64,000 nt of DNA from Bacteroidales bacterium (GTDB taxonomy: Bacteria > Bacteroidota > Bacteroidia > Bacteroidales > UBA5342). Location: assembly GCA_041584055.1 (NCBI GenBank), contig JBFHER010000001.1:17143-81142 (forward strand), read 5' to 3'. How positions within the stretch are numbered: position 1 is the first letter of the stretch; every line of letters starts with the position of its first letter. The translations under genes were made by a program, and so were the position numbers. Below are positions 15,697-49,039 of the stretch, in pieces. The notes below the pieces were generated by a model. That model was not told where the DNA came from and did no database searches. It worked only from the letters and a program-made list of their open reading frames with translations.

Positions 15697-18600
15697 ATGA
15701 ATATGCACACATCAGGCATTTTTAAACAACGAAGAACTGGAATTTTGTTGGCAATGATTTTTGTTTCAATGCTGGTTTTTTCGCAACGTACAACCACAAA
15801 TTTTAATCATAACTGGCGTTTTGTTCTGGAGGACAATGCATCCTTTTGGCAGGAACATGTGGATGACGCTTCCTGGCGTGTTTTAAATGTTCCACATGAC
15901 TGGTCCTTCGAAAAAGGGGTTAGAGTAGGAGGAGATCAAGGACAGGGGGGAGGTTATCATGATGGAGGAATTGCCTGGTATCGCAAAACTTTTATGGTTA
16001 ATAAAAGGAGTTTGTCGATGGTAAACTATATTCAGTTTGATGGGGTTTATATGAACAGTGAAGTCTGGATAAATGGTCATTACCTTGGGAAAAGACCCTA
16101 TGGTTACATCAGTTTTCGTTACGATATTTCAAATTATTTAAAGGAAGGAAGCAACCGAATTGCAGTGAGAGTTGATAATGGGTTGGAACCTTCGGCTCGT
16201 TGGTACCATCCCTGCGGTATTTATGCGCCGGTTACCTTAACAGAAGTGCATCCAACACACATAGCCCCAAATGGAATATGTATAACTACCCCGGAGATAG
16301 GCAGTTCAAAAGCCTCTGTGAAAACCCACCTACACATCCTTGGCGATCCCAAAAACAAGGTATTAAAAAACCGTATCCTTTCTCCTTCAGGTGAGACGCT
16401 GATTTACAGTACTCAAAAATTAAACAAAGCTCAAAATGTAGAAAGCGAACTGGTCGTAAAAAAACCAAAATTATGGAGTCCGGAAACACCGTTTTTATAT
16501 ACACTTGTTTCACAGATTTACGATGGGAAAGATGTGATTGATGAAGTCAGAACACCTTTTGGATTCAGAACAGTAGAATGGAAAACAGAAACAGGGTTCT
16601 GGCTAAATGGACAGAATGTAAAACTTAAGGGCGTTTGCGAACATTGGGAAGGAGGACCCGTCGGAGGTGCGTGGACAAAGCCAATGTTGCGATGGAAACT
16701 ACAGCTGTTAAAAGAGATGGGGATCAATGCCATTCGTCCGTCTCACAATCCAACACCGCCCATGTTTTATGATATTTGCGATGAAATTGGCTTGTTGGTA
16801 ATGGATGAGATCTTTGACGGCTGGCACAAAAAAGCACCAGAAGATTATGGAAAACAGGCTTTTGACACCTGGTGGAAGCGTGACATGGAAGAATGGATTA
16901 CGCGGGATCGCAATCATCCAAGCATTTTTGTGTATAGCCTGGGCAATGAAACGCACAGTGATGTTGCACCTGAACTGGTCGCTTTTGGCAAAAGTTTAGA
17001 CAGCACCCGTTTATTTACCTCCGGTGCGGGGAATAGCGAAGACATGGATATCATCGGGGTTAATGGCGGTTCAGAAACGCAATTATTTCTCGAAAATAGT
17101 ACATTTGATAAACCATTTGTCTCAACAGAAGCCCCACATACATGGCAAACACGGGGCTATTACCGCACACAAACATGGTGGCGCGATAATGAATTGCCAG
17201 GGACTTACCCTTTGCCGGATTTAACAGAAAAAGAGATTTTCTTTTATGAAGGATTAAATCCTAAAGACTGGAAAAACAGAAAGCAACGCTTCAATTCATC
17301 TTACGACAATGCAACGGTTCGAATTTGTGCAAGAAAAAACTGGGAGGTAATGCGGGATACCCCCTGGCACAGTGGCCATTTCCGTTGGACAGGTTTTGAT
17401 TATTACGGCGAAGCAGGTTTAGCACATGGTGGCTTGCCTTTTAATTTATTTATGGGAGGCGTGCTTGATGTGGCTGGCTTTCAGAAGGATTTGTATTATT
17501 TCTATCAAAGTCAGTGGACCACCAAAACAATGCTTCATATGCTTCCGGGTTGGACACACCCAGGTATGAAAGAGGGGACGCTAATTCCCGTATGGGTGTA
17601 TTCCAATGCAGAAGAAGTAGAATTGTTCTTAAATGGAAAATCATTGGGAAAAGATAAGCCCGGGACGGTTTGGAACGAAATGCAATGCGAGTGGATGGTC
17701 CCTTTTCATACCGGGACCATAGAAGCCGTTGCTTTTAACAATGGTAAAGAAGTCAAACGAACTTCGTTTAGCACAAGCAAACAGCCATCGAAATTGCGGA
17801 ACACACTTACAAGGTTAAATGCTGAAGATGGTTTCCCCACGAGTTATATAATCACAACTGAAGGGATGGATGCGCATGGAAACCTGTTTCCATATGCCGA
17901 AAATAAGGTGTATTACAAGCTACAGGGAGATTTAAAGAAAGTGTCCATCGAAAATGGAAATCCAATCGATCAGGTGAGTCGTACAAAAGAAAACTTCAGA
18001 CAAATGTTTTTCGGAAAAGTAAGGCTGTTTCTAGAAGAGAAAGAAAATGCTCAACAGGGATCCGTTATTTATGCATCTATTTTGGGTGATAAAGCATTGC
18101 GTCTGTCCAAAACAATTGCAATTGACGCAAATCAATCCGTCATTCTTGGGAATGAAACAGATTGTAATTTAGACATAAAATACACCGTCGATGGTACAAG
18201 TCCGGAGACGCACGGCATCACGTATACAAAACCTTTTGAAGTACTTGATGGAACCACTGTAAAGGCCATTGTACTGCAAGGGGAGACCATTGTTTTAAAA
18301 ATGGATGAGGTCTTTGGAAAAGATGAAGGTCTGTTTTGGGGAAACGAACATGCTGCAGATATGTGGAAAGGCAGAGGTGTGAATATCCCTGCAGAAGATG
18401 CGACGCTTGAGGGAGGTGCCGTGGCTGATAACGACGCACATCATTTTAAGGGCAGTGGTTATGTTATGTTTCAGGGTAGAGAAGGTGCTGTTACCTGGTA
18501 CAAAGAAAATGATGGTGAAGCAGGCGATTACAGCATTCGATTCAGGTACATGCACAATGATACTGATAAGTACTATCCCATGAAACTATTTGTGAATAAT

Positions 18601-18759
18601 GAATACGTGCTTACTTTTGAATTTGAAGCAACCGGCGGATGGGTTCAGAATTGGAAATTTGTAAATACAATTGTGAATTTTAAATCGGGCGCAAATCATA
18701 TTAGGCTCGAAACGTCCGGAGAAAGCGGACCTTACATTGATGAACTCTTTATTGATTAA
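15697..18759 (+). CDS. GH2-family glycoside hydrolase (beta-galactosidase/beta-glucuronidase-like) with C-terminal CHB_HEX_C-like and CBM6/35-like modules
   Basis: 'NHNWRF...WRVLNVPHDWS' GH2 sugar-binding start. 'NHPSIFVYSLGNETH' (acid/base). 'FVSTEAPHTW' (nucleophile region). 'DIKYTVDGTSPE..YTKPFEV' module. Tail 'GSGYVMFQG..GDYSIRFRY..IRLETSG..YIDELFID' resembles CBM6/35. Confidence 0.88.
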   Translation: MNMHTSGIFKQRRTGILLAMIFVSMLVFSQRTTTNFNHNWRFVLEDNASFWQEHVDDASWRVLNVPHDWSFEKGVRVGGDQGQGGGYHDGGIAWYRKTFMVNKRSLSMVNYIQFDGVYMNSEVWINGHYLGKRPYGYISFRYDISNYLKEGSNRIAVRVDNGLEPSARWYHPCGIYAPVTLTEVHPTHIAPNGICITTPEIGSSKASVKTHLHILGDPKNKVLKNRILSPSGETLIYSTQKLNKAQNVESELVVKKPKLWSPETPFLYTLVSQIYDGKDVIDEVRTPFGFRTVEWKTETGFWLNGQNVKLKGVCEHWEGGPVGGAWTKPMLRWKLQLLKEMGINAIRPSHNPTPPMFYDICDEIGLLVMDEIFDGWHKKAPEDYGKQAFDTWWKRDMEEWITRDRNHPSIFVYSLGNETHSDVAPELVAFGKSLDSTRLFTSGAGNSEDMDIIGVNGGSETQLFLENSTFDKPFVSTEAPHTWQTRGYYRTQTWWRDNELPGTYPLPDLTEKEIFFYEGLNPKDWKNRKQRFNSSYDNATVRICARKNWEVMRDTPWHSGHFRWTGFDYYGEAGLAHGGLPFNLFMGGVLDVAGFQKDLYYFYQSQWTTKTMLHMLPGWTHPGMKEGTLIPVWVYSNAEEVELFLNGKSLGKDKPGTVWNEMQCEWMVPFHTGTIEAVAFNNGKEVKRTSFSTSKQPSKLRNTLTRLNAEDGFPTSYIITTEGMDAHGNLFPYAENKVYYKLQGDLKKVSIENGNPIDQVSRTKENFRQMFFGKVRLFLEEKENAQQGSVIYASILGDKALRLSKTIAIDANQSVILGNETDCNLDIKYTVDGTSPETHGITYTKPFEVLDGTTVKAIVLQGETIVLKMDEVFGKDEGLFWGNEHAADMWKGRGVNIPAEDATLEGGAVADNDAHHFKGSGYVMFQGREGAVTWYKENDGEAGDYSIRFRYMHNDTDKYYPMKLFVNNEYVLTFEFEATGGWVQNWKFVNTIVNFKSGANHIRLETSGESGPYIDELFID

Positions 18760-18762
18760 GAA

Positions 18763-20694
18763 ATGGAAAGAAGAGGTTTTATTCGACTATCGGCCATTAC
18801 CGGTTTAGGATTTTCACTGGCACCCCTAAAGGCATGCAATGCACCCTTCAATGACACAGGGCATTCAAAGGAAACCATGAAGCTGTACTACTCCCTCCTT
18901 AAGGATTGGTGTGATGGCATGATCCATATTCAGGTTGTAAATCCGAATGATATGACAGTGCATGGATCTCTTGATTGTCCCTCCTGTTTACATATTCATG
19001 GTCGGTGCATGGATGCGGTTTATCCTTTTATGTTTATGGCGGATAAAACTGGAGAAAAGAAGTATTTAGATGCGGCGGTTTTAGTAATGCAATGGGCTGA
19101 AAACAACGTGTCGCAGGAAGATGGAAGTTGGACCGTGATTCCAAATCCAAAATCCTGGAAGGGAATATCGGTCTTTGGGGCCATTGCTCTGGCCGAAGGA
19201 CTTCACTATCATGGACATATTCTGGATGATGATTTGCGGCAGCAATGGATGGATCGTTTGGCTCGGGTGGGGGACTATATTTACAAGACTTTTACAATTT
19301 CATTTACGAATATTAACTATGGTGGAACTGCTGTATATGGACTAAATCTTTTAGGTCGTGTCCTTGGAAATGATAGCTTTATAGTTAAAAGTCATCGCCT
19401 CGCGGCCGATGTAAAAGCCTATTTTACAAAGAATAACAATCTGCTCTTTGGTGAAATTAAACCTGATTCTAACAAAACAAGCGCCAAGGGATTAAAAGGG
19501 GTTGATTTAGGGTACAATGTAGAAGAAACCCTAAACGGACTGGTAATGTATGCCCTGCACGAAAAGGATGAAGAATTGCTTCAGATTCTGCAAAAATCTC
19601 TGGACAGTCATTTGGCATTTATGTTGCCTGATGGCGCCTGGGACAACAGTTGGGGAACACGACAATACAAATGGAGTTACTGGGGAAGTCGCACCTGTGA
19701 TGGGAGTCAACCTGCGTTTGCAATGATGGCTAAGTACAATGGTGCCTATGCTACTGCAGCCATTAAAAACACAGAGCTGCTCAGGCGCTGCACAGCAAAC
19801 GGACTCTTGCATGGTGGTCCACACTTTGTGTCGCATGGGGTTAAACCGTGTGTGCATCATACCTTTGCACACGCAAAACCTTTGGCTTCTTTGTTGGACC
19901 ATTGGGCGCATTTGCCAGAACAAAACACCAATATACCTTTGCCTCGTGAAGTGGTTGATGGCCTGACATACTATAAAGACCTGGATGTTTCGCTTTTTGC
20001 CCGGGGTGATTGGCGAGGAACGATATCTGCTTACGATGCGGAGTACCATTACAAGCATGACTACCGTCAGGCTACCGGCGGGGCATTGGCCATGTTATAT
20101 CACGCCAAAGTAGGCACAATATTAACTGCAAGCATGGCTGTTTATAAGTTGGTTGAAGTGAATAATCAACAGGAGGCAGCCGGTGAGGATATTGCTCTTA
20201 CACCACGAGTAGAGACCTATAAAGATGGGGTTTGGTTCACCAACCTATTTGATCTTACCGCAACTTTTAAGTCAGCGGATGTGGACGGAAAAATAGGCAT
20301 AGATGCAGATGTTCTCCTAAAAAACGAATCGCGTGATGTCGTAAACGGCACAGCCAATCAGTTTAAATTAACCTATACCTGTACTGTAGATAAAATGCAG
20401 ATAGCGGTATCAACTTATCAGGATATTATAGGAAAAACTGCACTGGTATTGCCCATCGTTTCACAAACAGGAGAAAAAATTTCCTGGAATTCACCTTCCG
20501 AAATGACAATTGAAAAAAGCAATGGGCTGGTGCTTGTCAAAGCAAATGCACCCCTTGGTATAAAAAGCATGTCGGGAACCCGCACGTTTAATCAGGTTCC
20601 AGGTGTAGAGGCAATTCCTGTGATTGCAACGATTCCTGAGGGTGAACAGTCTGTAACTGTTACCATTGAGATTGTGTCGTATGTTGACTTTTAG
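18763..20694 (+). CDS. Tat-signal protein of unknown function; predicted alpha-helical toroid plus beta-sandwich architecture with a Cys-rich motif
   Basis: N-terminus 'MERRGFIRLSAITGLGFSLAP' fits the twin-arginine consensus (RRxF-hydrophobic-K/R). 'CPSCLHIHGRC' cluster. Helix-rich first ~400 aa, beta-rich last ~230 aa. Starts 3 nt after the GH2 stop and is followed by GH105. I recognise no family. Confidence 0.6.
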   Translation: MERRGFIRLSAITGLGFSLAPLKACNAPFNDTGHSKETMKLYYSLLKDWCDGMIHIQVVNPNDMTVHGSLDCPSCLHIHGRCMDAVYPFMFMADKTGEKKYLDAAVLVMQWAENNVSQEDGSWTVIPNPKSWKGISVFGAIALAEGLHYHGHILDDDLRQQWMDRLARVGDYIYKTFTISFTNINYGGTAVYGLNLLGRVLGNDSFIVKSHRLAADVKAYFTKNNNLLFGEIKPDSNKTSAKGLKGVDLGYNVEETLNGLVMYALHEKDEELLQILQKSLDSHLAFMLPDGAWDNSWGTRQYKWSYWGSRTCDGSQPAFAMMAKYNGAYATAAIKNTELLRRCTANGLLHGGPHFVSHGVKPCVHHTFAHAKPLASLLDHWAHLPEQNTNIPLPREVVDGLTYYKDLDVSLFARGDWRGTISAYDAEYHYKHDYRQATGGALAMLYHAKVGTILTASMAVYKLVEVNNQQEAAGEDIALTPRVETYKDGVWFTNLFDLTATFKSADVDGKIGIDADVLLKNESRDVVNGTANQFKLTYTCTVDKMQIAVSTYQDIIGKTALVLPIVSQTGEKISWNSPSEMTIEKSNGLVLVKANAPLGIKSMSGTRTFNQVPGVEAIPVIATIPEGEQSVTVTIEIVSYVDF

Positions 20695-20878: not shown

Positions 20879-21991
20879 ATGAGACGTATAATTGGATTGT
20901 TTTTGTTTGTGGCTCTGAGTATTTTTACAAATGCCCAGACAAATAGGCCTGAGGATGTAAAGAAGGCTATGAAACGGGTTGCCGACTGGCAGATAGAGCA
21001 TTTTAAAGACACTTACAGTGGGCGAAATGAACCGCATCACCCCCTGGCATGGACCAATGGTGCCTTGTATGTGGGAATGGTCAAGTGGGCTGAAATGGCG
21101 GATGATGACACCTATTGGAATTGGATGAAGCAAATTTCAGAAGCGCACGAATGGAAGTTACATGAGCGGATGTATCATGCCGATGATCATACAGTAGGGC
21201 AGATGTACATCGAACTGTTTCGAAAATATGGGGATGAAAAGATGTTGGCCCCGACACAAAAACAATTGGAATACATTTATTATCATCCGGCAAATACATC
21301 CTTACAGTGGGTAGGCAACGCTTTTTATAAGCATGATCGTTGGAGTTGGTGTGACGCCCTGTTTATGTCACCCCCAGTTTGGGCAAAACTGTATAAGGAA
21401 ACAGGGGATGAAAAGTATCTTAACTTTTTGATGAAAGAGTTTAAAGCCACCACGGATTATCTGTTCGATAAAAAGGAAAACCTTTATTATCGCGATCAAA
21501 GCTATATGGGTAAATTGGATAATGGGACTAAAATTTTCTGGGGACGTGGCAACGGTTGGGTGTTTGCCGGACTTACTAATGTGATGGAAGAACTGGATCC
21601 CGGCTCAAAGGAGTACAAATATTTTCTTAAAATTTATAAGAAGATGGCGAAAAAGCTCATAGAAATTCAAACAGAAAAAGGACACTGGGCAATGAGTTTG
21701 CTGGGTGATGCGTTTTACCCAACGCCCGAAACCAGTGGTTCATCTTTCTTTGTATATGGATTGGCATGGGGAATCAATAAGGGTATTTTAGACAATGAGA
21801 AATATGAACCAGCAACCATCAAAGGTTGGAATGCAATGCTTAGCCATATTACCGAAGATGGGATGTTGGGCTATGTCCAACCGATTGGTGCCGCGCCAGG
21901 AAAAGCATGGCCTGATAAAACCGAGGTTTATGGAACTGGAGCCTTTTTAAGTGCAGGGGCTGAAGTTTATAAGTTATTTGGTGGAAAATAA
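20879..21991 (+). CDS. GH105 unsaturated rhamnogalacturonyl/uronyl hydrolase (YteR-like, GH88/GH105 fold)
   Basis: Signal peptide. 'HDRWSWCDALFMSPPVWAKLY' (catalytic Asp context). 'FWGRGNGWVFAGL'. 'SSFFVYGLAWGI'. Size of 370 aa is typical. Confidence 0.85.
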   Translation: MRRIIGLFLFVALSIFTNAQTNRPEDVKKAMKRVADWQIEHFKDTYSGRNEPHHPLAWTNGALYVGMVKWAEMADDDTYWNWMKQISEAHEWKLHERMYHADDHTVGQMYIELFRKYGDEKMLAPTQKQLEYIYYHPANTSLQWVGNAFYKHDRWSWCDALFMSPPVWAKLYKETGDEKYLNFLMKEFKATTDYLFDKKENLYYRDQSYMGKLDNGTKIFWGRGNGWVFAGLTNVMEELDPGSKEYKYFLKIYKKMAKKLIEIQTEKGHWAMSLLGDAFYPTPETSGSSFFVYGLAWGINKGILDNEKYEPATIKGWNAMLSHITEDGMLGYVQPIGAAPGKAWPDKTEVYGTGAFLSAGAEVYKLFGGK

Positions 21992-24871: not shown

Positions 24872-26605
24872 ATGAAAAAAATAGTAGTAACGATATTGAT
24901 ATTTGGCAGTATAATTGGATGTAATAACCCACATTCTGCACAGAAAGAGGGCGATGAGTACTCTTATAAAATTGAGCGCACTTACATTACACCAACTAGA
25001 ATAGTTTGGAAATCTGGTATTGTAAAAAACACACAACAACTTCTGCAAGCAGGTAGACATCAAAGCACAACAAAAAAGAACGATTTGATAGAATTCAACA
25101 ATAGCGATGGGACAGCCGCTATTTTATTGGACTTTGGTAAAGAGATGCATGGCGGTTTGGAGATTGTTACTGCAATGTTTAAGGGGAAAGAACCCATCAA
25201 AGTTCGGATTCGTTTTGGCGAGTCGGTTTCTGAGGCGATGTCTAACGTAGGCGAAGATGGTGCCACAAATGACCATGCGGTGAGAGACATGAAACTAGCG
25301 CTACCGTGGTGTGGAAAAATAGAAGTAGGGAATACGGGCTTTCGTTTTGTACGCATTGATTTACTGGACAAGGACCGGGTGTTGCATTTGAAGGAAATAA
25401 GTGCAATATCTGTTATGCGTGATATTCCTTATTTGGGTTCTTTTAAATCAAATGACGAACGCCTGAATAAAATCTGGAAAACAGGTGCTTATACCGTTCA
25501 TCTTAACATGCAAGAGTATTTATGGGACGGCATCAAACGCGACCGCCTCGTTTGGGTGGGGGATATGCACCCCGAAGTCATGACCATTCTTGCGGCTTTT
25601 GGAGCCAATGAGGTGGTGACAAAATCCCTGGATTTAATGGAAGAAATTACACCCCTCCCCGGTTGGATGAATGGTAAATTTCACTCATACTCTATGTGGT
25701 GGCTGCTTATTCAGCACCAATGGTTCATGAATACTGGTGATTTGAATTATCTGGAAAAACACAAAGAATACATTTATGGCTTATTAGCAGTTTTAGAAGA
25801 AAATATTGATAGTGAAGGAAAGGAAAGTTTTGAAGGCGAGTGTTTCCTGGATTGGCCTACCCGAAGTGACCAGGTTGAGGTGAGAAAGGGCATGCAAGCT
25901 TTGCTGGCCATGTCCTTCGATGCAGGTGAAGATATTGCCTTATCATTAAAAAACAATGAGAAAGCTGCGCATTACAAGTTGGTATCTCAAAAAGTGAAAA
26001 GTTATAAACACACGTTTCCTTCACGAAAATCGCCAGGGGCATTGTTGGCGATGTCAGGCATCTTAGATCCTAAAGTGGTAAATGATGACTTATTGGTAAA
26101 AGATGGTGTTAAAGACATTTCTACATTCTACGGCTATTACGTCTTAAATGCCATGGCTCTGGGTGGAAACCATCAAGGAGCAATCGATGTGATTAGAAAG
26201 TACTGGGGCGGAATGCTCGATTTGGGAGCCACCTCGTTTTGGGAGGATTTTGATATTGACTGGTTGGATAATGCCGGGCGTATTGATGAAATCGTTCCCG
26301 ATGATAAAGTGGATGTACATAGAACCTATGGTAAATATTGCTACGTTGGCCTCAGACATAGCTTTTGTCATGGCTGGGCATCAGGCCCAACAGCGTGGTT
26401 GTCGCAATACGTTCTTGGTGTAAATATAGTGGCTCCTGGCTGTAAGAAAATAAGCATAGAACCACACCTGGGAGATCTGGAATGGGTGGAAGGAACCTAT
26501 CCTACGCCTTATGGTCTGGTGCATATTAAGCATACAAAGGACAGTAAAGGGAACATAAAATCTGAAATAAAAGCGCCAAAAGAGGTTAAGATTATTAAAC
26601 CCTGA
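24872..26605 (+). CDS. GH78-related six-hairpin glycosidase lipoprotein (short alpha-L-rhamnosidase-like protein)
   Basis: Lipobox 'IIGCNNP'. 'WDGIKRDRLVWVGDM' is equivalent to the GH78 'DCPxRERxxWxGD' segment. (alpha/alpha)6-type helical repeats, then 'CHGWASGPTAWL' and a C-terminal beta domain. Confidence 0.65.
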   Translation: MKKIVVTILIFGSIIGCNNPHSAQKEGDEYSYKIERTYITPTRIVWKSGIVKNTQQLLQAGRHQSTTKKNDLIEFNNSDGTAAILLDFGKEMHGGLEIVTAMFKGKEPIKVRIRFGESVSEAMSNVGEDGATNDHAVRDMKLALPWCGKIEVGNTGFRFVRIDLLDKDRVLHLKEISAISVMRDIPYLGSFKSNDERLNKIWKTGAYTVHLNMQEYLWDGIKRDRLVWVGDMHPEVMTILAAFGANEVVTKSLDLMEEITPLPGWMNGKFHSYSMWWLLIQHQWFMNTGDLNYLEKHKEYIYGLLAVLEENIDSEGKESFEGECFLDWPTRSDQVEVRKGMQALLAMSFDAGEDIALSLKNNEKAAHYKLVSQKVKSYKHTFPSRKSPGALLAMSGILDPKVVNDDLLVKDGVKDISTFYGYYVLNAMALGGNHQGAIDVIRKYWGGMLDLGATSFWEDFDIDWLDNAGRIDEIVPDDKVDVHRTYGKYCYVGLRHSFCHGWASGPTAWLSQYVLGVNIVAPGCKKISIEPHLGDLEWVEGTYPTPYGLVHIKHTKDSKGNIKSEIKAPKEVKIIKP

Positions 26606-26631
26606 TAACTAAATACCAAAGAGTAAAAAGA

Positions 26632-29600
26632 ATGAAACGAAAGATACATCTCAAATCAAACGCAACTATTTTGCTGTTCAGTTTGCTATCAATTTCAGTA
26701 TTCGGAAATGGTTTGAAGACCCAGGATTTACGATGTGAATATCGCGTGAATCCATTGGGTATTGATAATGAGTCCCCTCGTTTAAGCTGGAAAATAATTG
26801 ATCCGCTAAATACACGTGGGCAAAAGCAAACAGCCTATCGAATTCTGGTAGCGAGCAGTTTAGATAATTTGAATGGTAACAAGGGAGATTTGTGGGATTC
26901 TGGGAAGGTTGTAAGCAGCCAATCGGTGAACAATACCTATCAGGGACAGGCTTTAAAGTCTGCAACAAAGTATTTCTGGAAAGTAAAAGTGTGGGATGCT
27001 GATGGGAAGAGCTCTGATTGGAGTGAAGCCGGGTATTTTTCTATGGGCTTGTTAAAACAATCGGATTGGAAAGGCGAATGGATTCTGAAACCGGATCAGG
27101 AAAAGACAGATCATAACTGGTATAGAAAAACTTTTAAGTTAAATGAAAAAGCAACATCTGCCTTTGTTTATGTAGGTTCTTTTGGTTATCACGAATTATA
27201 TGTGAATGGTAAAAAAGTAACAGATAATGTAATGAACCCGGTTTCTTCTTATATGAAAAAACGAATTCCTTATTTGACCTATGATATTACTCAATTTTTG
27301 AATGTAGGTGATAATGTAATTGCCATTTGGCATGCAGCAGGTTGGGCACGTTGGGATCGCATTATTGATTATCGTAATCCACCGTTTGTGTTTAAAGCGC
27401 AAACGAATATATTGACTAGTAAGGGTGAAATGGTATTCGGGACTGATGAAACCTGGAAATGTAAAAAAAGCCATAGTTCTTATTATGGCGATTGGGATAT
27501 TTTAGATTTTGGTGGTGAAACCATAGATGACAGGTTTAAGGAAGATGATTGGAATGCCATTGCATATAACGATGCTGATTGGGGCAATGCCAGTTCTTAC
27601 AATGCTGAAAAATTAAATGCATCACTCGAAAAAATCAATGATTCTTTTGAGGTTAAAGAAGATAAACTAATAGGTAAAAATAAATTTAAAAATAGAAAAT
27701 TCAGTAGCATTACCGCACAACTAAGTGCTCAAATGGTAGAGCCTCAAATTAAATTCAGAGAAATTACACCTATGGCCATCACCCAAAATGACGATGGTAC
27801 TTATAGGGTAGATATGGGCGAAAACTATACGGGTTTTTTTGAAATGGATTTATTTCAAGGAAAAGAAGGAGATTCTATTGTATTTGAAATAAGCGATGTA
27901 GAAGATGTGCGATCTAATTGGAAGCAAAAAAGCAAATACATTTTTGGAAAATCGGGTGAAGGTAAATTTGCCAACCGTTTTAATGTGGCAGGCGGACGCT
28001 GGATGACCGTTTATGGCCTAAAATATGAACCTAACTTATCCGACATCAAAGGCTATGTGGTGACGAATAATCGTAAACAGATCAGTCAATTTGAATCATC
28101 AGATCCATTACTCAATAAAATATACAACATAAACCTTGCTACCTACTTAGCAAATACCATGGACGGTATATTGGTCGATTGTCCACACCGTGAACGCAGA
28201 GGCTGGGGAGAAGTAACGGTTGCAGCCATGTATGGTGATGCGCTGCCCAATTTCGAGAGTGGTGCTTATATGGATCAATATCTGCAATATACAAGAGATG
28301 CACAACTTCCCGATGGTCAAATAAGGGGCATTATAAATGAAAATGACCGACCGTTTTTAATGTGGAAAGCCAATAATCCCTTAACGGTTTGGGAAACCTA
28401 CAGCATGTTGGGCGACAAAAAAGTATTGGAAGATAATTACGACGCCATGAAAAAATGGATGACGTGGATGTATAAGAATTCTAATTATGAAACAGGTGGC
28501 GCATTAATAACTGGTGAGCAAGGAGCTAGAGCATTTCCAGGCTTGGGTGATTGGTGTACTCCGCGAGGTAATTTTTGGACTAGCAGTAATTCTCCTGCAG
28601 CCATCCATTTTAACAATTGTGTATACGCCTATATGTTAGACAATGCGATGCAAATCGCGAAGGTTTTAGGTAAAACAGAAGATGCCAGGATATATGCCGA
28701 ACGATTAAAAGTGCAGCGCGAATCGACTCATAGACTATCATACAATCCAGAGACAGGCAAGTATGTGGATGGCTTACAGGTCGATCAGGCTTTTGCCCTT
28801 TTGGCTGGCGTAACTCCAGAGACTGAACGCAAAAAAGTATATGATAATTTGGTGGATAATGTACTCTATAAATTTCCTTACTACGATACAGGAAGTTCAG
28901 GACAGGCATTGTACACACGCTATTTTATTGAATCGGGTGAACGCATGGATTTAATTTATGAGCTACTTCGAGACAAGCACCACCCGAGTTATGGTTATTT
29001 TATCGGGCAAGGGAAAACTGTTTGGCCAGAGCGCTGGTCTGCTGTTGGAGTAAGTCAAATTCATACCTGCTATACAGGCATTGGAGGCTATTTTATCAAA
29101 GGTTTTGGAGGCATACGCCCAAATGCTGATGGTGCAGGTATGCAACACATGCGTATTAAACCCACTCTTGTTGACGATATTGCTTTCGCAAATACTGCGT
29201 ATGAATCCCTGTATGGTAATGTGGTGGTTAATTGGAAGAAATACGAAAAAGGAGCAAGCTTTCACATTGAAATTCCTGCCAATACAAGCGCAAAAGTATA
29301 TTTGCCGGCGACTGATAAAAAGGTTGTGAAAGAAGGGAATACACGGGCAGAAAACGCCGAGGGAATATCCTATGCAGGAACAGAAAAAAGTGATGCTGTC
29401 GGAAACTATGTAATATATAATGTTGTTTCCGGTGTGTATGATTTTGTGGTAGAAACCTTACCCGAAGTATCCTTCCCTGATCCGATAATAGCGTCGCAAA
29501 ACCTGGCCACTTTGGGTAGAATGAATGCTTCTTCTATGTTTATTGAAACCGAAAAATTACCCGGGTTTGAAGCCTTTAAAGCCAACGACGAAGATGCAGA

Positions 29601-29880
29601 GACTTGCTGGTTAGCTGATGCCGCAAAAAATCAATATTTAGAAGTTGAATGGTTAAAACCGCAACGCTTTAGCCAAATTGTTATTGATGAGGTAGATAAT
29701 AATATTACGGCTTATAAACTTCAATACTTTGATAATGGTGATTGGATCGACCTTGTAAATGGAACAACATGTGGTAGCAATAAAAACCATCGTTTTGAAA
29801 CAGTTACAGCTACAAAGTGCAGGATATTTATGATGGATGCCCAAACGGCCCCCTCTATTTCAGAGATAAAGATTTTTTAA
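26632..29880 (+). CDS. GH78 alpha-L-rhamnosidase with C-terminal F5/8 type C (discoidin/CBM32-like) domain
   Basis: Canonical GH78 N-terminus 'LRCEYRVNPLGIDNESPRLSW...QTAYRILVASS...LWDSGKV...YFWKVKVWD'. 'VDCPHRERRGWGE'. Tail 'FKANDEDAETCWLAD..QYLEVEW..AYKLQYFDNGDW' is discoidin-like. Confidence 0.9.
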   Translation: MKRKIHLKSNATILLFSLLSISVFGNGLKTQDLRCEYRVNPLGIDNESPRLSWKIIDPLNTRGQKQTAYRILVASSLDNLNGNKGDLWDSGKVVSSQSVNNTYQGQALKSATKYFWKVKVWDADGKSSDWSEAGYFSMGLLKQSDWKGEWILKPDQEKTDHNWYRKTFKLNEKATSAFVYVGSFGYHELYVNGKKVTDNVMNPVSSYMKKRIPYLTYDITQFLNVGDNVIAIWHAAGWARWDRIIDYRNPPFVFKAQTNILTSKGEMVFGTDETWKCKKSHSSYYGDWDILDFGGETIDDRFKEDDWNAIAYNDADWGNASSYNAEKLNASLEKINDSFEVKEDKLIGKNKFKNRKFSSITAQLSAQMVEPQIKFREITPMAITQNDDGTYRVDMGENYTGFFEMDLFQGKEGDSIVFEISDVEDVRSNWKQKSKYIFGKSGEGKFANRFNVAGGRWMTVYGLKYEPNLSDIKGYVVTNNRKQISQFESSDPLLNKIYNINLATYLANTMDGILVDCPHRERRGWGEVTVAAMYGDALPNFESGAYMDQYLQYTRDAQLPDGQIRGIINENDRPFLMWKANNPLTVWETYSMLGDKKVLEDNYDAMKKWMTWMYKNSNYETGGALITGEQGARAFPGLGDWCTPRGNFWTSSNSPAAIHFNNCVYAYMLDNAMQIAKVLGKTEDARIYAERLKVQRESTHRLSYNPETGKYVDGLQVDQAFALLAGVTPETERKKVYDNLVDNVLYKFPYYDTGSSGQALYTRYFIESGERMDLIYELLRDKHHPSYGYFIGQGKTVWPERWSAVGVSQIHTCYTGIGGYFIKGFGGIRPNADGAGMQHMRIKPTLVDDIAFANTAYESLYGNVVVNWKKYEKGASFHIEIPANTSAKVYLPATDKKVVKEGNTRAENAEGISYAGTEKSDAVGNYVIYNVVSGVYDFVVETLPEVSFPDPIIASQNLATLGRMNASSMFIETEKLPGFEAFKANDEDAETCWLADAAKNQYLEVEWLKPQRFSQIVIDEVDNNITAYKLQYFDNGDWIDLVNGTTCGSNKNHRFETVTATKCRIFMMDAQTAPSISEIKIF

Positions 29881-29903
29881 AACAAGAACAGTTAACACTA
29901 TCG

Positions 29904-32771
29904 ATGCAAAAAGAGTATTGGTTAAATATAAGAAGTGGATTTGTAATTGCATGGTTATTGGTGCTAACGTCTTGTTTTGCGCCATTGCAAAAGGAGGATC
30001 AGCTTGCCTCAAACTTTAAAAACCCACCCCATGAGGTTCGTCCGCAGGCATGGTGGTGGTGGCTTCAAACACCTACAACGAAAGAGGCCATTACGCTCGA
30101 TCTGGAAGAAATGAAGGCGAAAGGCCTTTCTGGCTGCATGGTTCTGGATGGAGGAGTTGGGCCTTTTGGCCCCAATAAGTGGAAAAAGCTTACCATCATC
30201 GATACCACCGAAATAAGGTATGAACTGACTGATGAATACAAAGGCGGAAGTCTGGCTCAGCCAATGGAGAAAATGGAAATGTGGTCAAAGCCCTGGCGTG
30301 ATATGGTGCGTTTTGCATCGAAAGAAGCTGGTAGACTGGGATTGGATTTTGGTGTGTTCATAGGACCCGCCGGTTGTGCTGCTCCCTGGGTAACGCCCAA
30401 TTACGGTCAGCAGGAGTTGGTTTGGGATGATACAACAGTAGTTGGAGGCCAGCGGATAGAGCAAACGCTTGAAAAACCGCACACGCCGGTTCAAACAAAA
30501 AGGCAGCCTGAAAATCAGGTCGTAAAGGATGCTCAAAACGCCTTTTACAATGATGTTGCTGTTTTGGCCATTCCTGAAAAGCGAAATCTGAAATTGAATG
30601 AAGTACTTGATATTACCGATAAATTGGATGAAAATGGTTATCTAAAATGGGAGGCTCCGCAAGGCCAGTGGCGAATTATTCGTTTCGGCTATCGTCCAAC
30701 TGGGCGAAATTTGGGAGGCATTTTTTATATTGATCACTTGAGCAAAGAGGTTTTTGATCTGCATTGGGCAAATACAGCAGGTTTACTATTAAGTGAAATG
30801 AGTGATGATGAACGGGTCGCATTTAAGTACGTTGAGTGCGATAGTTGGGAAGCAGGTGATCCAAACTGGACGAAACATTTCCCACAGGAATTTAAAGAAC
30901 GCCGTGGCTATGATATGTTAAAACATCTGCCTGCACTAATTGGTGTAAGCATTGATTCAGAAGAATCTACGAAACATTTTATAAATGATTTCCAATTAAC
31001 CATTAGCGATTTGATTTCCGAAAATCACTATGGAAGGCAGCAGGAAGTGGCTCATGAACAGGGCTTACAATCCTATGCCGAGGCAGCAGGCCCGCACCAG
31101 TATCAGGCTGATTTGAAAAAATGTGTTAGCAAATGTGATGTGGCGATGGGCGAGTTTTGGATGCCTTCGCCTCACCGCGAAAAGCCCAGTGGTCGTTTTT
31201 TTGTGCGCGAGGCAGCAACATCGGCTCATATTTATGGCATCAGGCAGGTTTTTGCTGAATCGTTTACCTCGGTGGGTCCCAACTGGGAGGTGTCGCCATT
31301 TATGATGAAAGCTGCTGCCGATCAGGCCTTTTGCGATGGCTTGAACTGGATTTGCTTCCACACCTTTACCCATCGTCCGTCGGTGACCGAGGTGCCGGGT
31401 TTAACCCATAGTGCCGGAACGCATTTCGACCGCACAAATACATGGTGGAATCAATCGGCACCTTTTGTTACGTATCTTTCACGCTGTTCCTACATGCTTC
31501 AACAAGGCTTGTTTGCTGCCGATGTGCTAATTTATAACGGACATGGCTTGAGAAGGGGTGCAGATGCTTTAGAATGGGCTGATGGCATGAAAAACCCACC
31601 CGCGAGTTTGGGCGCTGGCTACGATTACGACAAGTGCAATGAGGAGGTACTGTTAACCCGACTTGACGTGCAAAACGGAAAGCTCATATTGCCCGACGGC
31701 ATGGATTACAAGCTTTTGGTGATCGATGAAAAAACACCCGTGTCGTTAAATGCGCTCAAAAAGATAGTGAGCCTGGTTGAGCAGGGAGCAACGGTTATGG
31801 GCAAAATAGAAATCCCAATGTTGAGTAAAGCGGATGATGCCGCTGAGTATCAAAAACTATTGAAGCGCATTTGGGGCAATACAGAGGAAGGCGAAAACGC
31901 CTTTGGGAAAGGACAAGTGGTGTGGAACCGAAGCATACGTGAGGTCTTGCAAAACAAGAACATACTTCCCGATTTTGAGTGTTCAGGTTTAAGCGATGCC
32001 GGAGTGGTGGATTTTATTCATCGCAAAACAGAAGATGGAGATATTTATTACCTTGCCAGTCGATGGCAGCCAAGTGAGAAAGTGGAATGTACATTCAGGG
32101 TAAGTGGCAAGCAACCCGAATTGTGGGATCCAGTGACGGGAGAAACACGTATTTTAACCAAGTTTAAGGTTGAAAACGGCCGTACCATCATTCCAATGGA
32201 ATTTGGACCTTGTTCATCATACTTTGTTGTTTTTAAAGAACCAATATCGGTACAGAATTCAGCTTCAAACTGGCCGACATTTAAACCGGTACAACAAATA
32301 GAAGGGGCTTGGGAAGTGCATTTTGATAAAAAATGGGGAGGGCCCGAATCTGTGATCTTTAAAAACCTAAGTGATTGGTCAAAGCATACTGATGCAGGAA
32401 TCAAATATTATTCAGGCACAGCGACATACCACAAGTCTTTTGATTGTAATAATTGGAATGAGGATGGCGAGCTTTATCTCGATTTAGGAAAAGTACACGA
32501 ATTAGCTCAGGTGAAATTAAACGGCGTCGATTTAGGCGTAGCCTGGACAAAACCTTTTCGTGTCGATATCACCTCGCATGTCAGGGCCAAAGGCAACCAA
32601 CTGGAGATTGCGGTGGTCAACCTCTGGCCCAATCGCCTTATTGGTGATGAGTTTCTTCCTGAAGAAGAAAGATATACGCAAACGAATATCCGTAAATTTA
32701 CTAAAAACAGCAGCTTGCTACCTTCTGGCCTAATTGGGCCAGTCCAAATCATCACAAAAAAGAATGATTAA
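29904..32771 (+). CDS. GH106-like glycoside hydrolase lipoprotein (putative alpha-L-rhamnosidase) with C-terminal jelly-roll domain
   Basis: 'FKNPPHEVRPQAWWWWL' N-terminal signature. C-terminal 'YYSGTATYHKSF...VVNLWPNRLIGDE...LLPSGLIGPV'. The track start at 29817 overlaps the previous gene by 64 nt. The ATG at 29904 gives the lipoprotein signal '...LVLTSCF'. Confidence 0.65.
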   Translation: MQKEYWLNIRSGFVIAWLLVLTSCFAPLQKEDQLASNFKNPPHEVRPQAWWWWLQTPTTKEAITLDLEEMKAKGLSGCMVLDGGVGPFGPNKWKKLTIIDTTEIRYELTDEYKGGSLAQPMEKMEMWSKPWRDMVRFASKEAGRLGLDFGVFIGPAGCAAPWVTPNYGQQELVWDDTTVVGGQRIEQTLEKPHTPVQTKRQPENQVVKDAQNAFYNDVAVLAIPEKRNLKLNEVLDITDKLDENGYLKWEAPQGQWRIIRFGYRPTGRNLGGIFYIDHLSKEVFDLHWANTAGLLLSEMSDDERVAFKYVECDSWEAGDPNWTKHFPQEFKERRGYDMLKHLPALIGVSIDSEESTKHFINDFQLTISDLISENHYGRQQEVAHEQGLQSYAEAAGPHQYQADLKKCVSKCDVAMGEFWMPSPHREKPSGRFFVREAATSAHIYGIRQVFAESFTSVGPNWEVSPFMMKAAADQAFCDGLNWICFHTFTHRPSVTEVPGLTHSAGTHFDRTNTWWNQSAPFVTYLSRCSYMLQQGLFAADVLIYNGHGLRRGADALEWADGMKNPPASLGAGYDYDKCNEEVLLTRLDVQNGKLILPDGMDYKLLVIDEKTPVSLNALKKIVSLVEQGATVMGKIEIPMLSKADDAAEYQKLLKRIWGNTEEGENAFGKGQVVWNRSIREVLQNKNILPDFECSGLSDAGVVDFIHRKTEDGDIYYLASRWQPSEKVECTFRVSGKQPELWDPVTGETRILTKFKVENGRTIIPMEFGPCSSYFVVFKEPISVQNSASNWPTFKPVQQIEGAWEVHFDKKWGGPESVIFKNLSDWSKHTDAGIKYYSGTATYHKSFDCNNWNEDGELYLDLGKVHELAQVKLNGVDLGVAWTKPFRVDITSHVRAKGNQLEIAVVNLWPNRLIGDEFLPEEERYTQTNIRKFTKNSSLLPSGLIGPVQIITKKND

Positions 32772-32930
32772 ATGTTCATCAATATAAAAACGAGCCAACA
32801 CAAATAATGCTTTTAAAAAGACAATAAATAATCGGCGAGATCCGCAAAACACTTAAAAAAAAGATACATGAAACATGTGGCTTCCGATGGCTATCGGAAC
32901 CATCTGATAAAAAAATAAAATTATATACAG

Positions 32931-35264
32931 ATGAAAAAAATGCTATTCGTTGCAATCATTATTTTTACAACACACCATGCAAATGCTGCCAATTGGAAAA
33001 ACGCCCGGTGGATTTGGCAACAAGAGGATGGACCATCCAACACCTGGATGAGTTTTAGAAAAACAGTAAGCATTGATGAAGTACCTGAGGTGGTGGAAGC
33101 ACAGATTTCTGTGGATAGTAAATTTTGGCTTTGGATCAATGGCGAGTTGGTACTGTTCGAAGGTGGATTGTCTAGAGGGCCAAGTCAGGCTGGTGAGTGG
33201 GTTAGAAAAAAACAAATAACCCCGGCCAACTCGTGGTATGAAACCGTAAATATTCAACCTTATTTAAAGAAAGGTGAAAATACAATTGCCGTTTTGGTGT
33301 GGTATTGGGGACGCGAAACCCATAAAGGAACGCACATCGATAGTAAAAAAGGAGGCCTGTTATTTTCTTCACTTATTGGAAAACAAAAAGTGGTCTCAGA
33401 TGCTTCATGGAAAGCAATACAGCATCCTGCATATGATAATACCATTGATCCGGCCAGCAAAAATTTGGTTCAGTACAGTGTGAAGTTTGATGCGCAACTA
33501 GCGATGAATGATTGGTCGGATAAGGCCTGGTATACATCCGATTTCTCAGATAAAGAGTGGCCTGCTGCCATTGAAAAAGGAGCGGTAGGTATTGCCCCCT
33601 GGTATAATACAGAAAAGAATATCGTACCGCACTTAGTCAATCATGGTTTGCAGAACTATGACAATCATTCCGACTTAAAATTACCTTTCACAAGTCAAGG
33701 GAAAACCATAAAATGTCGCTTACTTTTTAATAAACAAATTACTCCCTATTTAGAAATTGAAGCCAAAGCGGGTGATACAATTTTTATGACGACCGATAAC
33801 CGCCTGAATGGCATCAATGCCACTTACATTACCAAAGAAGGTACGCAATCCTTCGAGAGCTTTTCTTGGATGAGTGGTCATGAAGTGCACTACACCATTC
33901 CTGCGGGTGTTAAGGTGAAAGCCTTGAAATACCGATGGATGAGCGTGGGCGAAATGGTTGGAAAATTTGAAGTGGATGATCCGTTTTATACTCGTTTATG
34001 GGAAATGGGAAATAACACCCTGTTTGTTTGTGCGCGCGATAATTTTATGGATTGTCCCGATAGAGAACGTGCTTTGTGGATTGGCGATGTGGCTGACCAA
34101 ACCGGTTATTTGTTCTATTCAATGGACAATGCCGGTCGTCAATTACTGAAAAAGGCCATTTTACAGACTGTACGTTTTAGTCAGGATGGTGTGCTTGGTG
34201 CACTGGGTCCACTTCGTGTTCGTGAACTCGTTGGTCAGAGCCTACAGTTTATCGCCCAGGTGGTTTGGCCTTACTATTTCAATACCGGCGACCTGGAAAC
34301 ACTGGAAATAGCCTATCCGTATGTGTATGATTATTTAGCCCTTTTCCCAATGGAAAGTAATGGTTTGCCTCAGTACCGCAAAGGCCAAAGTCCTGATTCG
34401 TGGGACTGGCTGGATTGGGGTGTAAAAGGTACTATAGATGCACAACCCATGCAACCGGCGTATTATTACCAGGCTTTAATTGAAGCAAGAAAAATGGCTG
34501 AAGTTCTCGGAATAAAGGAGCACCTGGCATTTTACTCCGAGCGTATTAATAGCATCAAAGAAAATTACGATAAGGCATTTTGGAAAGATGGATACTACAG
34601 TTCCGATGGTAAGTTGAAAGACGACCGGGCCAATGCTCTGGCAGTTACATCAGGCCTGGCAAAACCAGAAAACTACGAAGCCATTGTCGAAAATGTATTG
34701 GTGCCTATTAAATACAGCAGTCCGCATTTTGAATGGGTGGCCGAAGAGGCTTTATTTATTGCCGGAGCGCCAGAACTTTCATTAGAGCGTATGAAATCAC
34801 AATACGAAGGTCAAGTAAATTCAGGCTTATCCACGCTTTACGAAATGTTCCCCAAAGGCGGCAGTTACAACCACGCATGGAATGGGTCCAATACCATCCT
34901 ATCTAAATACATTGCTGGGGTAGCACCGACCAAAGTAGGGTGGAGCGAATATCAAATTATGCCAACGCTACTTCATTTTAAGCAGTTGAAGAAAACCATC
35001 CCAACTGTAAAAGGGAATGTTGATATCGCAATGGAAGTAACGGATGAAAACTATCAGATGGAACTCGTTTCTCCTGAAAATACGGTTGCTGTTGTAGGTA
35101 TTCCAAAACAAGGACGCGAAATATCAGAAGTAAGGGTAAATGGCGAGTTGGTATGGAAGAATAACTACAAAGCAAAAGCTGATGGGGTGTCATGGAAGGG
35201 TGAGGACGATGACTATCTATTATTTTTGGTTGAACCGGGGGAGTGGTTATTCATTGCCCAGTAG
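32931..35264 (+). CDS. GH78 alpha-L-rhamnosidase
   Basis: Signal peptide. 'ARWIWQQED...AQISVDSKFWLWINGELV' (Bac_rhamnosid_N-like). 'MDCPDRERALWIGD'. Six-hairpin region and C-terminal beta domain. Confidence 0.85.
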   Translation: MKKMLFVAIIIFTTHHANAANWKNARWIWQQEDGPSNTWMSFRKTVSIDEVPEVVEAQISVDSKFWLWINGELVLFEGGLSRGPSQAGEWVRKKQITPANSWYETVNIQPYLKKGENTIAVLVWYWGRETHKGTHIDSKKGGLLFSSLIGKQKVVSDASWKAIQHPAYDNTIDPASKNLVQYSVKFDAQLAMNDWSDKAWYTSDFSDKEWPAAIEKGAVGIAPWYNTEKNIVPHLVNHGLQNYDNHSDLKLPFTSQGKTIKCRLLFNKQITPYLEIEAKAGDTIFMTTDNRLNGINATYITKEGTQSFESFSWMSGHEVHYTIPAGVKVKALKYRWMSVGEMVGKFEVDDPFYTRLWEMGNNTLFVCARDNFMDCPDRERALWIGDVADQTGYLFYSMDNAGRQLLKKAILQTVRFSQDGVLGALGPLRVRELVGQSLQFIAQVVWPYYFNTGDLETLEIAYPYVYDYLALFPMESNGLPQYRKGQSPDSWDWLDWGVKGTIDAQPMQPAYYYQALIEARKMAEVLGIKEHLAFYSERINSIKENYDKAFWKDGYYSSDGKLKDDRANALAVTSGLAKPENYEAIVENVLVPIKYSSPHFEWVAEEALFIAGAPELSLERMKSQYEGQVNSGLSTLYEMFPKGGSYNHAWNGSNTILSKYIAGVAPTKVGWSEYQIMPTLLHFKQLKKTIPTVKGNVDIAMEVTDENYQMELVSPENTVAVVGIPKQGREISEVRVNGELVWKNNYKAKADGVSWKGEDDDYLLFLVEPGEWLFIAQ

Positions 35265-35310
35265 AGAATGTTATAAAAAGGTGATTTATTTATCATTAGA
35301 ATTTTAGAAA

Positions 35311-44579: not shown

Positions 44580-44909
44580 ATCGCATTAAACAAATGTTAC
44601 ATTTTGCAACATACATTCATGGATGACCAGTTTTTACAATAAATAGTTCAAATAGTTCAAAAGCCTGTTTGTGTTATAACTTATTTTTGATATGGTAAAA
44701 AAGTAACCAAAGGGATGTCTGGGTTGTTTGAACTTTTGAAGTTATAACGATTTAATAGTGAAAAGTGCCTTATATTTTTTGATGCTCAGGACAGGATGCT
44801 TAACTTGATAAAGCACAATCATTATTCTAAGGGCTTTAGCCCAAACCTTACACAAGGCGCAGTTTAGGATATAACATGGTATTACATGCCTAAAAAAGAT
44901 GGGAGAAAT

Positions 44910-49017: not shown

Positions 49018-49039
49018 TATTAAGGCTATTAATAAAGAT

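Follow-up and report, generated by a model that had tools for sequence, protein, structure and literature searches.

The 64-kb stretch of DNA analysed here, referred to as the window, comes from a contig of a Bacteroidales bacterium (JBFHER010000001.1). Between a GH2 gene and a GH105 gene it carries an open reading frame (ORF) of 643 amino acids on the forward strand (18763..20694), which we call the target and whose product begins with MERRGFIRLSAITGLGFSLAPLKAC. The original prediction, made from the sequence alone, had described this product as an unclassifiable exported protein and a candidate for a new lyase or hydrolase family. We place it in the existing polysaccharide lyase (PL) family PL37 and propose that it acts in exo mode as a uronate 4,5-dehydratase and supplies the neighbouring GH105 enzyme. 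The predicted position of the ORF was verified: the junction with the upstream GH2 gene reads TAA GAA ATG (GH2 stop at 18757-18759, target ATG at 18763), leaving a spacer of 3 nt, and a gap of 184 nt separates the target from the next gene, which starts at 20879. The GH2 and target genes are probably co-transcribed, and a GH2 gene likewise lies directly upstream of the PL37 homologue in the two closest loci (L001 and L007). A search of the 184-nt gap for terminator-like sites found none; sigma-70-like matches were present, a pattern that is uninformative for Bacteroidota. The expected GH105 identity of the downstream gene was borne out by its Pfam match, to a model that also covers GH105 (Table 1), and by its best match in the PDB (4CE7, E = 1e-64, aligned over amino acids 53-366). 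The latter is the Nonlabens 'unsaturated 3S-rhamnoglycuronyl hydrolase', an ulvan-specific GH105 acting on delta-Rha3S, that is, a 4,5-unsaturated uronate (delta) linked to rhamnose 3-sulfate (Rha3S). No second PL37 copy was found in the window.

Table 1. Coordinates of the target, its parts and other genes in the window
Feature	Position	Strand	Evidence
PL37-family gene, P29_PDnc/Cdf79930-type uronate 4,5-dehydratase or 'ulvan lyase'	18763..20694	+	ORF; precomputed PF25840 + PF25841; P29_PDnc residues at identical numbering
Probable twin-arginine signal with ERRGFIR, a weakly hydrophobic h-region and K23, and with lipobox-like LKAC (Cys25) at its end	18763..18837	+	TIGR01409; homologues
N-terminal incomplete (alpha/alpha) toroid domain, ~aa 36-398	18868..19956	+	DSSP, 11-12 helices, H36-56 to H364-379; Foldseek
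C72-x-x-C75-x-x-x-H79, conserved part of Cys/His cluster	18976..18999	+	Counts in 132 representatives
Catalytic segment D248...Y306	19504..19680	+	P29_PDnc residues at same numbers; conservation
C363-V-H365-H366 motif, with C363 as fourth residue of the putative Cys3His site	19849..19860	+	Conservation and co-loss
C-terminal beta-sandwich domain, ~aa 399-640	19957..20682	+	DSSP strands E400 to E638; PF25841
GH2 gene	15697..18759	+	Pfam GH2 N, TIM-barrel and C5 domains
GH105, unsaturated 3S-rhamnoglycuronyl hydrolase homologue	20879..21991	+	Pfam Glyco_hydro_88, 5.9e-85; best PDB match 4CE7
GH78, GH78, GH106, GH78 + sulfatase block	24872..36735	+	Pfam matches
GH3 with PA14 insert, incomplete at window end	61598..64000	+	Pfam Glyco_hydro_3, Glyco_hydro_3_C, PA14

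Searches of the target against local copies of Pfam-A, NCBIfam and the PDB sequences gave no match, and with respect to these libraries alone the term 'unclassifiable' was accurate. Precomputed annotation from a newer Pfam release places two domains, PF25840 (Ulvan_lyase_N) and PF25841 (Ulvan_lyase_C), on a database protein that is 100% identical to the target (P0001). The same pair is found on the called gene in a related locus (L077) and on every protein listed in two homologue searches; on the identical protein and the L077 gene the matches are unmarked, which corresponds to E <= 1e-5. The local Pfam result was empty because both models are absent from the local copy. In the literature, the Ulvan_lyase names trace to one protein of Formosa agariphila, the PL37 founder (BN863_22180 = Cdf79930 = P29_PDnc = WP_038530528.1): the PL37 entry in a review table is CDF79930.1 (PMC11395424), and Baumgen 2021 predicted dehydratases 'using the PL37 family' (PMC8511951). 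The target almost certainly belongs to CAZy PL37. The claim of a new enzyme family is refuted, as PL37 has been known since 2018, when its founder was first characterised, and the founder was characterised again in 2021.

PL37 is a broad family, with 820 representatives at 50% identity that extend to other phyla and include signal-less, presumably cytoplasmic members. The closest genomic relatives of the target come from two metagenome-assembled genomes (MAGs; L001 with 79% and L007 with 70% identity), and the target is ~62-67% identical to a Flavobacteriaceae clade that shares the residue numbering of P29_PDnc. In a neighbour-joining tree, the target and the Bacteroidales MAG sequences L001 and L007 form the sister group of this clade (the D248 clade), apart from the paralogues. 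The latter include a second Flavobacteriaceae clade (~55% identical to the target) that is numbered D251/R303 and fits neither of the numberings used in the 2021 paper. Two PL37 paralogues occur in the same locus or genome in L001, L018, L058 and L076, and L011 and L051 come from one genome. The two Flavobacteriaceae clades also differ in their neighbours, which are GH106, AraC and GH78 for the D248 clade and GH2, GH106 and sulfatase for the D251 clade. The distinct numbering together with the distinct neighbours suggests sub-functionalisation within the family.

The residues implicated in catalysis also tie the target to the founder, by a link that is indirect yet strong. Eight residues of P29_PDnc are reported as conserved or were mutated (D248, E254, E255, D269, D290, R300, K303 and Y306; PMC8511951), and the target carries all eight at identical numbers. 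Among 132 diverse family representatives with 32-66% identity, from which all conservation counts given here are taken, D248 is present in 132, R300 in 131 and K303 in 130, and E254, E255, D269, D290 and Y306 are likewise invariant or nearly so. The D248N, R300E and K303I variants of P29_PDnc were inactive and Y306F was active, with proposed roles of base for D248, stabiliser for R300 and acid for K303 (PMC8511951). R300E is printed as 'R230E' in the Results text of that paper, and its variant list and supplement table give R300E (PMC8511951). The alternative numbering in the same paper (D242, R294, K297) corresponds to 632-aa short-start forms of the same Flavobacteriaceae clade. Outside the residue set mutated in 2021, PL37 has three further invariant residues (N185, Y186 and Y251) and two near-invariant ones (H365 and H366). 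These residues resemble the canonical Asn/His/Tyr set of related lyase folds, a likeness which suggests that the published D248/K303 mechanism may be incomplete.

The fold of the target was modelled with AlphaFold2 (model m9435d9db6653) at a mean predicted local distance difference test score (pLDDT) of 94.1 and a predicted TM score of 0.92. According to DSSP, the model is helical to about residue 380 and consists of beta strands from about 400 to 638, in agreement with the helical N-terminal two-thirds and beta-rich tail that had been predicted by eye. The predicted toroid-plus-sandwich layout of PL8/15/17/21-type lyases was also supported. Foldseek against the PDB returned matches with a probability of 1.0 to lyases of families PL35 (8KHW), PL33 (8R72), PL17 (4NEI, 7BM6), PL12 (heparinase III, 4FNV), PL15 (3A0O) and PL8 (1EGU) and to human dermatan-sulfate epimerase 1 (6HZN), all of which have the two-domain fold in common with the target. 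The top matches had E values of 1e-12 to 1e-8, TM scores of 0.42-0.55 and identities of ~8-12%; all were toroid-plus-sandwich uronate enzymes (50 matches listed), and no close solved structure was among the Foldseek matches in the PDB. To our knowledge, all of these enzymes start by abstracting the C5 proton of a uronate. The model suggests that the target would work in the same manner, yet it is no sequence member of their PL families: unlike structural comparison, sequence and profile searches from the target do not detect them, and the leaving group proposed here is water rather than a glycoside.

A search of the PDB with the family profile gave only generic alpha/alpha-hairpin matches and no lyase, and a literature search found neither a solved PL37 structure nor a PL37 metal site. 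Cdf79930 itself was described, based on Phyre2 and circular dichroism, as an incomplete (alpha/alpha)6 toroid followed by a beta-sandwich (Konasani 2018), and the target model agrees with this description. Weak local profile matches at amino acids ~73-112 of the target (18979-19098) to GH76 mannanases (E = 1e-4), LanC-like protein 1 (LanCL1; E = 0.017) and AGE-family epimerases probably reflect generic helix-hairpin similarity. An analogy to LanC was dropped, because chain residue 329, where the LanCL1 match begins, is past the Zn ligands, which we take to lie at ~322-323.

The founder has been assigned two different activities. Konasani 2018 reported Cdf79930 as a broad-spectrum lyase, endolytic on ulvan (Km 0.77 mg/ml), heparan sulfate and chondroitin sulfate, with nuclear magnetic resonance (NMR) and liquid chromatography-mass spectrometry of the products. 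Baumgen 2021 found P29_PDnc, with an N- or C-terminal tag, to be without lyase activity on seven ulvans (absorbance at 235 nm, carbohydrate polyacrylamide gel electrophoresis and reducing ends), while a PL28 control worked (PMC8511951). P29_PDnc instead converted glucuronate or iduronate linked to Rha3S (GlcA/IdoA-Rha3S) to delta-Rha3S by loss of water, in a reversible reaction during which deuterium was incorporated, and P33_GH105 cleaved the delta-Rha3S so formed (PMC8511951).

Based on this biochemistry, the conserved residues and the gene context, we consider it roughly 60% probable that the target works as an exo-type uronate 4,5-dehydratase whose product the neighbouring GH105 consumes, and it is very probably the supplier of the unsaturated uronate that the GH105 needs. 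In the proposed pathway, the target would be exported, probably via the twin-arginine translocation (Tat) route as a lipoprotein, to the periplasmic side. The sulfatases of the locus and its GH78 and GH106 rhamnosidases would cut back imported ulvan-like oligosaccharides, taking off sulfate and rhamnose, to the point where the non-reducing end is a saturated GlcA or IdoA (GlcA/IdoA-Rha3S). The target would then abstract the C5 proton of this terminal uronate, with its carboxylate neutralised, and eliminate the 4-OH as water to give the 4,5-unsaturated uronate (delta-Rha3S), which the adjacent GH105 would hydrolyse to 5-dehydro-4-deoxy-glucuronate and Rha3S. The chemistry would be of the polysaccharide-lyase type with water as the leaving group. 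Dehydration of trimmed ends would thus enable a locus without a recognisable endo-lyase to make use of its GH105. What the analysis shows directly is the family, the conserved residues, the fold and the surrounding genes; the activity, the substrate, the bound metal and the route of export are inferred.

The gene content of the window is of the ulvan type and closely matches the dehydratase pathway. It comprises two SusC/SusD pairs, GH2, a GH5-like gene, four GH78-type and three GH106-type genes, GH59, GH95, eight sulfatases and an AraC regulator, as well as a GH39-like enzyme and, at the 3' end, a GH3 with a PA14 insert. All enzyme classes of the published 'alternative ulvan pathway' are therefore present, namely GH105, sulfatase, GH78, GH3 and the PL37 protein. 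The window GH3 shares its CAZy family with Formosa P34_GH3, which cleaves GlcA/IdoA-Rha3S in the hydrolytic branch, the alternative to dehydration (PMC8511951). Apart from the PL37 label of the target, Pfam identified no PL domain in any window ORF of at least 200 aa. The argument in the original prediction that something must feed the GH105 was sound, because the context is that of an ulvan pathway without another recognisable lyase, and the target remains the likely source. The proposal that it does so by lyase cleavage is disfavoured by the biochemistry of the founder, which points to dehydration of terminal GlcA/IdoA (PMC8511951). In 75 related loci, the genes within 10 kb of the homologue included sulfatases (41 loci), GH78 (34), GH106 (31), GH105/88 (26) and AraC regulators (18).

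Compared with P29_PDnc, the target shares the Pfam pair, the toroid-plus-sandwich fold, the eight residues and a length close to the ~638 aa of the clade, and it lies in a similar ulvan-type polysaccharide utilization locus (PUL) with GH105, GH78, GH3, GH39, GH2 and sulfatases. It differs in coming from an uncultured Bacteroidales-like lineage and in being flanked by GH2 upstream and GH105 downstream, whereas the Formosa P29 gene lies beside a PL28 gene; unlike in the Formosa locus, no endo-lyase was seen in the 64-kb window. A functional analogue, rather than a relative, is provided by GH154. These beta-glucuronate dehydratases of Bacteroides (BcGDH, BT_3677) dehydrate saturated non-reducing-end glucuronate to the delta-4,5 uronate, which a GH88/GH105 exo-uronyl hydrolase can then remove, and their genes co-localise with GH88/GH105 genes (PMC12269599). 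GH154 enzymes and P29_PDnc are unrelated at the sequence level according to the authors (PMC12269599), GH154 substrates are of the chondroitin type, and the target has no GH154 Pfam match.

The Cys/His cluster of the target, CPSCLHIHGRC at amino acids 72-82, had been singled out in the form CxxC..H.H..C, and part of it proved to be conserved. C72 (124/132), C75 (117/132) and H79 (123/132) are widely retained; H77 is mostly replaced by Arg, and position 82 is Cys in just 58 of the 132 representatives. A further conserved Cys, C363 (125/132), precedes the near-invariant H365 (123/132) and H366 (129/132) in a C-V-H-H motif. All seven representatives with Ser363 lack both C75 and H79, and six of the seven lack C72, yet the same seven sequences all retain H365, H366, D248, R300 and K303. 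The co-loss of C72, C75, H79 and C363 gave Fisher p values of ~3e-7 to 7e-11, which ignore phylogeny, and in a rough tree the seven losses are spread over two or more groups. Fisher tests detected no such association for C82, C343, C50, H365 or H366. These patterns are most simply read as one Cys3His metal site in the toroid domain, probably for Zn, to which C72, C75, H79 and C363 would contribute; its role would be structural and dispensable for the core chemistry. Retention of the catalytic residues where the unit has been lost argues for a structural rather than a catalytic metal.

In the AlphaFold2 model, the Cys3His and catalytic residues all precede helices and should be on the same face of the toroid. 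We know of no Cys3His motif at these positions in any of the toroid-plus-sandwich relatives. The chemistry of GH127/146 enzymes, to which the cluster had been likened, found no support: there was no match to these families in Pfam or in PDB sequence and profile searches and none among the 50 Foldseek matches listed, and the putative site here is Cys3His as opposed to the Cys3-Glu zinc site of GH127/146. P29_PDnc was described in 2021 as cofactor-independent, with no supplement needed (PMC8511951), which is compatible with a tightly bound metal. Neither primary paper on the founder (Konasani 2018; Baumgen 2021) mentions a metal site.

The N-terminus of the target carries a probable Tat signal that ends in a lipobox-like motif (Table 1). 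Its h-region is rich in Gly, Ser and Thr, and it scores 15.9 bits against TIGR01409, just below the cut-off of 16.7; the closest homologue reaches 21.2 bits, and the Pfam model TAT_signal gave no match on the target. The first 30 residues have pLDDT values below 50. Of 120 close homologues, 107 carry an RRxF[LI] motif, and the textbook form S/T-R-R-x-F-L-K is found in many distant exported members; other members have no signal. The Cys occurs in an L-x-[AS]-C context in 157 of the 160 close homologues that bear the RR motif, suggesting that these proteins are Tat-routed lipoproteins. Among window ORFs of at least 200 aa, the target is the only one with an RR motif, as had been predicted, and the others look like Sec or lipoprotein types. 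The further step from a Tat signal to a bound metal is not secure, since RR-type signals persist in five of the seven members without the Cys3His unit.

The annotation of Cdf79930 gives 622 aa and a '15-aa signal peptide', and neither primary paper on the founder refers to Tat. Full-length members of its clade (L002-L029) are 638 aa long and start with M-x-R-R-N-F; some NCBI records of the clade have 632 aa. The difference between 622 and 638 aa suggests that the start codon of the founder was probably placed too far downstream, which would hide the RR motif. This start call has probably removed the motif from the annotation of the characterised constructs.

The main rival to the dehydratase reading is that the target is a genuine PL37 lyase, which would cleave Rha3S-(1,4)-GlcA/IdoA in ulvan-like glycans by endo- or exo-acting beta-elimination, would thereby create the delta-uronate ends for the GH105, and might be bifunctional with a dehydratase. 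This would accord with the endolytic activity of Cdf79930 on ulvan, heparan sulfate and chondroitin sulfate (Konasani 2018), with a fold resembling the true lyases of PL35, PL33, PL12, PL15, PL17 and PL8, with the invariant N185, Y186 and Y251 and near-invariant H366, which are like a canonical lyase catalytic set, and with the absence of any other recognisable lyase from the window. We nevertheless consider it unlikely, as the founder showed no lyase activity on seven ulvans under conditions in which the PL28 control worked (PMC8511951), the delta product is equally explained by the same chemistry with water leaving, and a predicted periplasmic lipoprotein location suits the processing of oligosaccharides but not the first attack on a polymer. 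Several observations do weigh against dehydration. The activity of the founder is disputed, with lyase data from 2018 that include NMR and mass spectrometry, and both CAZy and Pfam keep the lyase name. The dehydratase turnover measured in 2021 was modest, with a thiobarbituric acid signal far below the positive control (PMC8511951), and the D248/K303 mechanism was called preliminary by its authors and leaves aside N185, Y186, Y251 and H365/H366. The kinship of the target and P29_PDnc was deduced from numbering, clade and Pfam labels; the founder itself (WP_038530528.1/CDF79930.1) is not among the 76 genome loci or in either of two top-120 homologue lists, the second of which was seeded with an Algibacter sequence. 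Substrate details may differ, given that the target is only ~62-67% identical to the Flavobacteriaceae clade, and an endo-lyase could lie beyond the 64-kb window or be encoded by the 291-aa ORF described below.

Abstraction of the C5 proton might also have another outcome, with the target acting as a uronate C5-epimerase (GlcA to IdoA) or as a dehydratase or lyase for a non-ulvan uronate glycan targeted by this locus in particular, for example a glycosaminoglycan-like glycan or another rhamnoglucuronan. Human dermatan-sulfate epimerase 1 is among the top Foldseek matches, PL37 has great breadth (820 representatives at 50% identity, with signal-less members and other phyla), homologues were noted in loci for heparin and chondroitin (Konasani 2018), and the GH59, GH95 and GH5-like genes of the window are outside the ulvan enzymes listed for PUL H of F. 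agariphila (PMC8511951). We regard such outcomes as improbable, because the adjoining gene is a 4CE7-type ulvan-specific GH105, the rhamnosidases, sulfatases and GH3 match the published alternative ulvan pathway, and the target clusters with the ulvan-PUL clade. The least credible reading is that of a founding member of a new carbohydrate-active enzyme family with a catalytic Cys/His metal, whether GH127/146-like or of novel lyase or hydrolase chemistry. It could draw on the empty local Pfam, NCBIfam and PDB-sequence results, on the strongly conserved and co-evolving C72/C75/H79/C363 and on the frequency of Tat-type signals in exported members, but it conflicts with the existing PL37 and PF25840/PF25841 assignment, with members that keep D248, R300, K303 and H365/H366 without Cys3His, with a founder that is active without added cofactors (PMC8511951) and with the absence of GH127/146 structures from the 50 Foldseek matches listed.

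Another ulvan lyase family, PL40, was also compared with the target, since its members (F. agariphila P10_PLnc/CDF79911 and Uly1040) are found in ulvan loci of the same kind. Uly1040 has been reported to be a two-domain, Mn2+-containing enzyme of 856 aa with a His/Tyr mechanism, whose site comprises His485, His487, Asp358 and Tyr305 and binds Mn via His487 and Asp358. An identity with PL40 was rejected, as the 856-aa enzyme is a distinct protein and PL40 (CDF79911) and PL37 (CDF79930) are separate entries (PMC11395424). Neither the target nor its family profile matched any PDB chain beyond noise, and no PL40 structure was among the 50 Foldseek matches listed, in a PDB set for which the presence of Uly1040 is unconfirmed.

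Several other genes of the window have features of their own. A secreted protein of 291 aa (44886-45761, +) has no Pfam or PDB sequence match, and in Algibacter marinivivus (L029) a homologue with 65% identity directly follows the gene for the PL37 homologue. The protein is a conserved component of such PULs that lacks an assigned family, and it may be a small lyase; for a hidden PL28-type lyase, neither Pfam nor PDB sequences gave support. The GH39-like protein (49007-51403, +) combines a Laminin_G_3 domain with a C-terminal sorting domain for type IX secretion, the sole such tail in the window; with no lyase visible in the locus, this protein is a candidate for making the first attack outside the cell. 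The first SusC/SusD pair is flanked by three proteins with fasciclin domains (18-917, 5686-7266 and 7303-8856, +); in the two longer ones (517-526 aa), the Pfam match spans the N-terminal 160-190 residues only, which leaves most of each protein unannotated. Finally, a GH78 ORF (26632-29880) and the following GH106 ORF (listed with a GTG start at 29817) overlap by 64 nt (29817-29880). The true GH106 start is probably further downstream, because the listed one is not followed by a signal-peptide-like N-terminus.

The target adds a Bacteroidales-lineage member to PL37, beside a GH105 gene and in a window without a detectable endo-lyase. This combination lends circumstantial weight to reading PL37, whose activity is disputed and which CAZy and Pfam still label as lyase, as a dehydratase family. 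What remains of interest are the Cys3His and Tat-lipoprotein features, the invariant or near-invariant N185, Y186, Y251, H365 and H366, which we flag as residues for mechanistic work, and the apparently lyase-free locus. The co-evolving Cys3His unit and the Tat-plus-lipobox signal are two family-wide features absent from both primary papers. Both could affect the recombinant production of PL37 enzymes, through the loading of metal and the choice of construct boundaries, and might be relevant to the conflict between the reported activities. A more far-reaching reading, which we put forward tentatively and think doubtful as a whole, would join these elements: PL37 would consist of Tat-exported lipoproteins with an undescribed and functionally important Cys3His Zn site on the catalytic face by H365/H366, and the locus would be independent of lyases. 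The Zn would then position H365/H366 or help to expel the poor 4-OH leaving group. If true, such a site near the point of catalysis could account for PL37 enzymes dehydrating rather than cleaving their substrates, and the locus would represent a purely exo-acting route (sulfatase, rhamnosidase, dehydratase and GH105) for ulvan-like rhamnoglucuronans in uncultured Bacteroidales.

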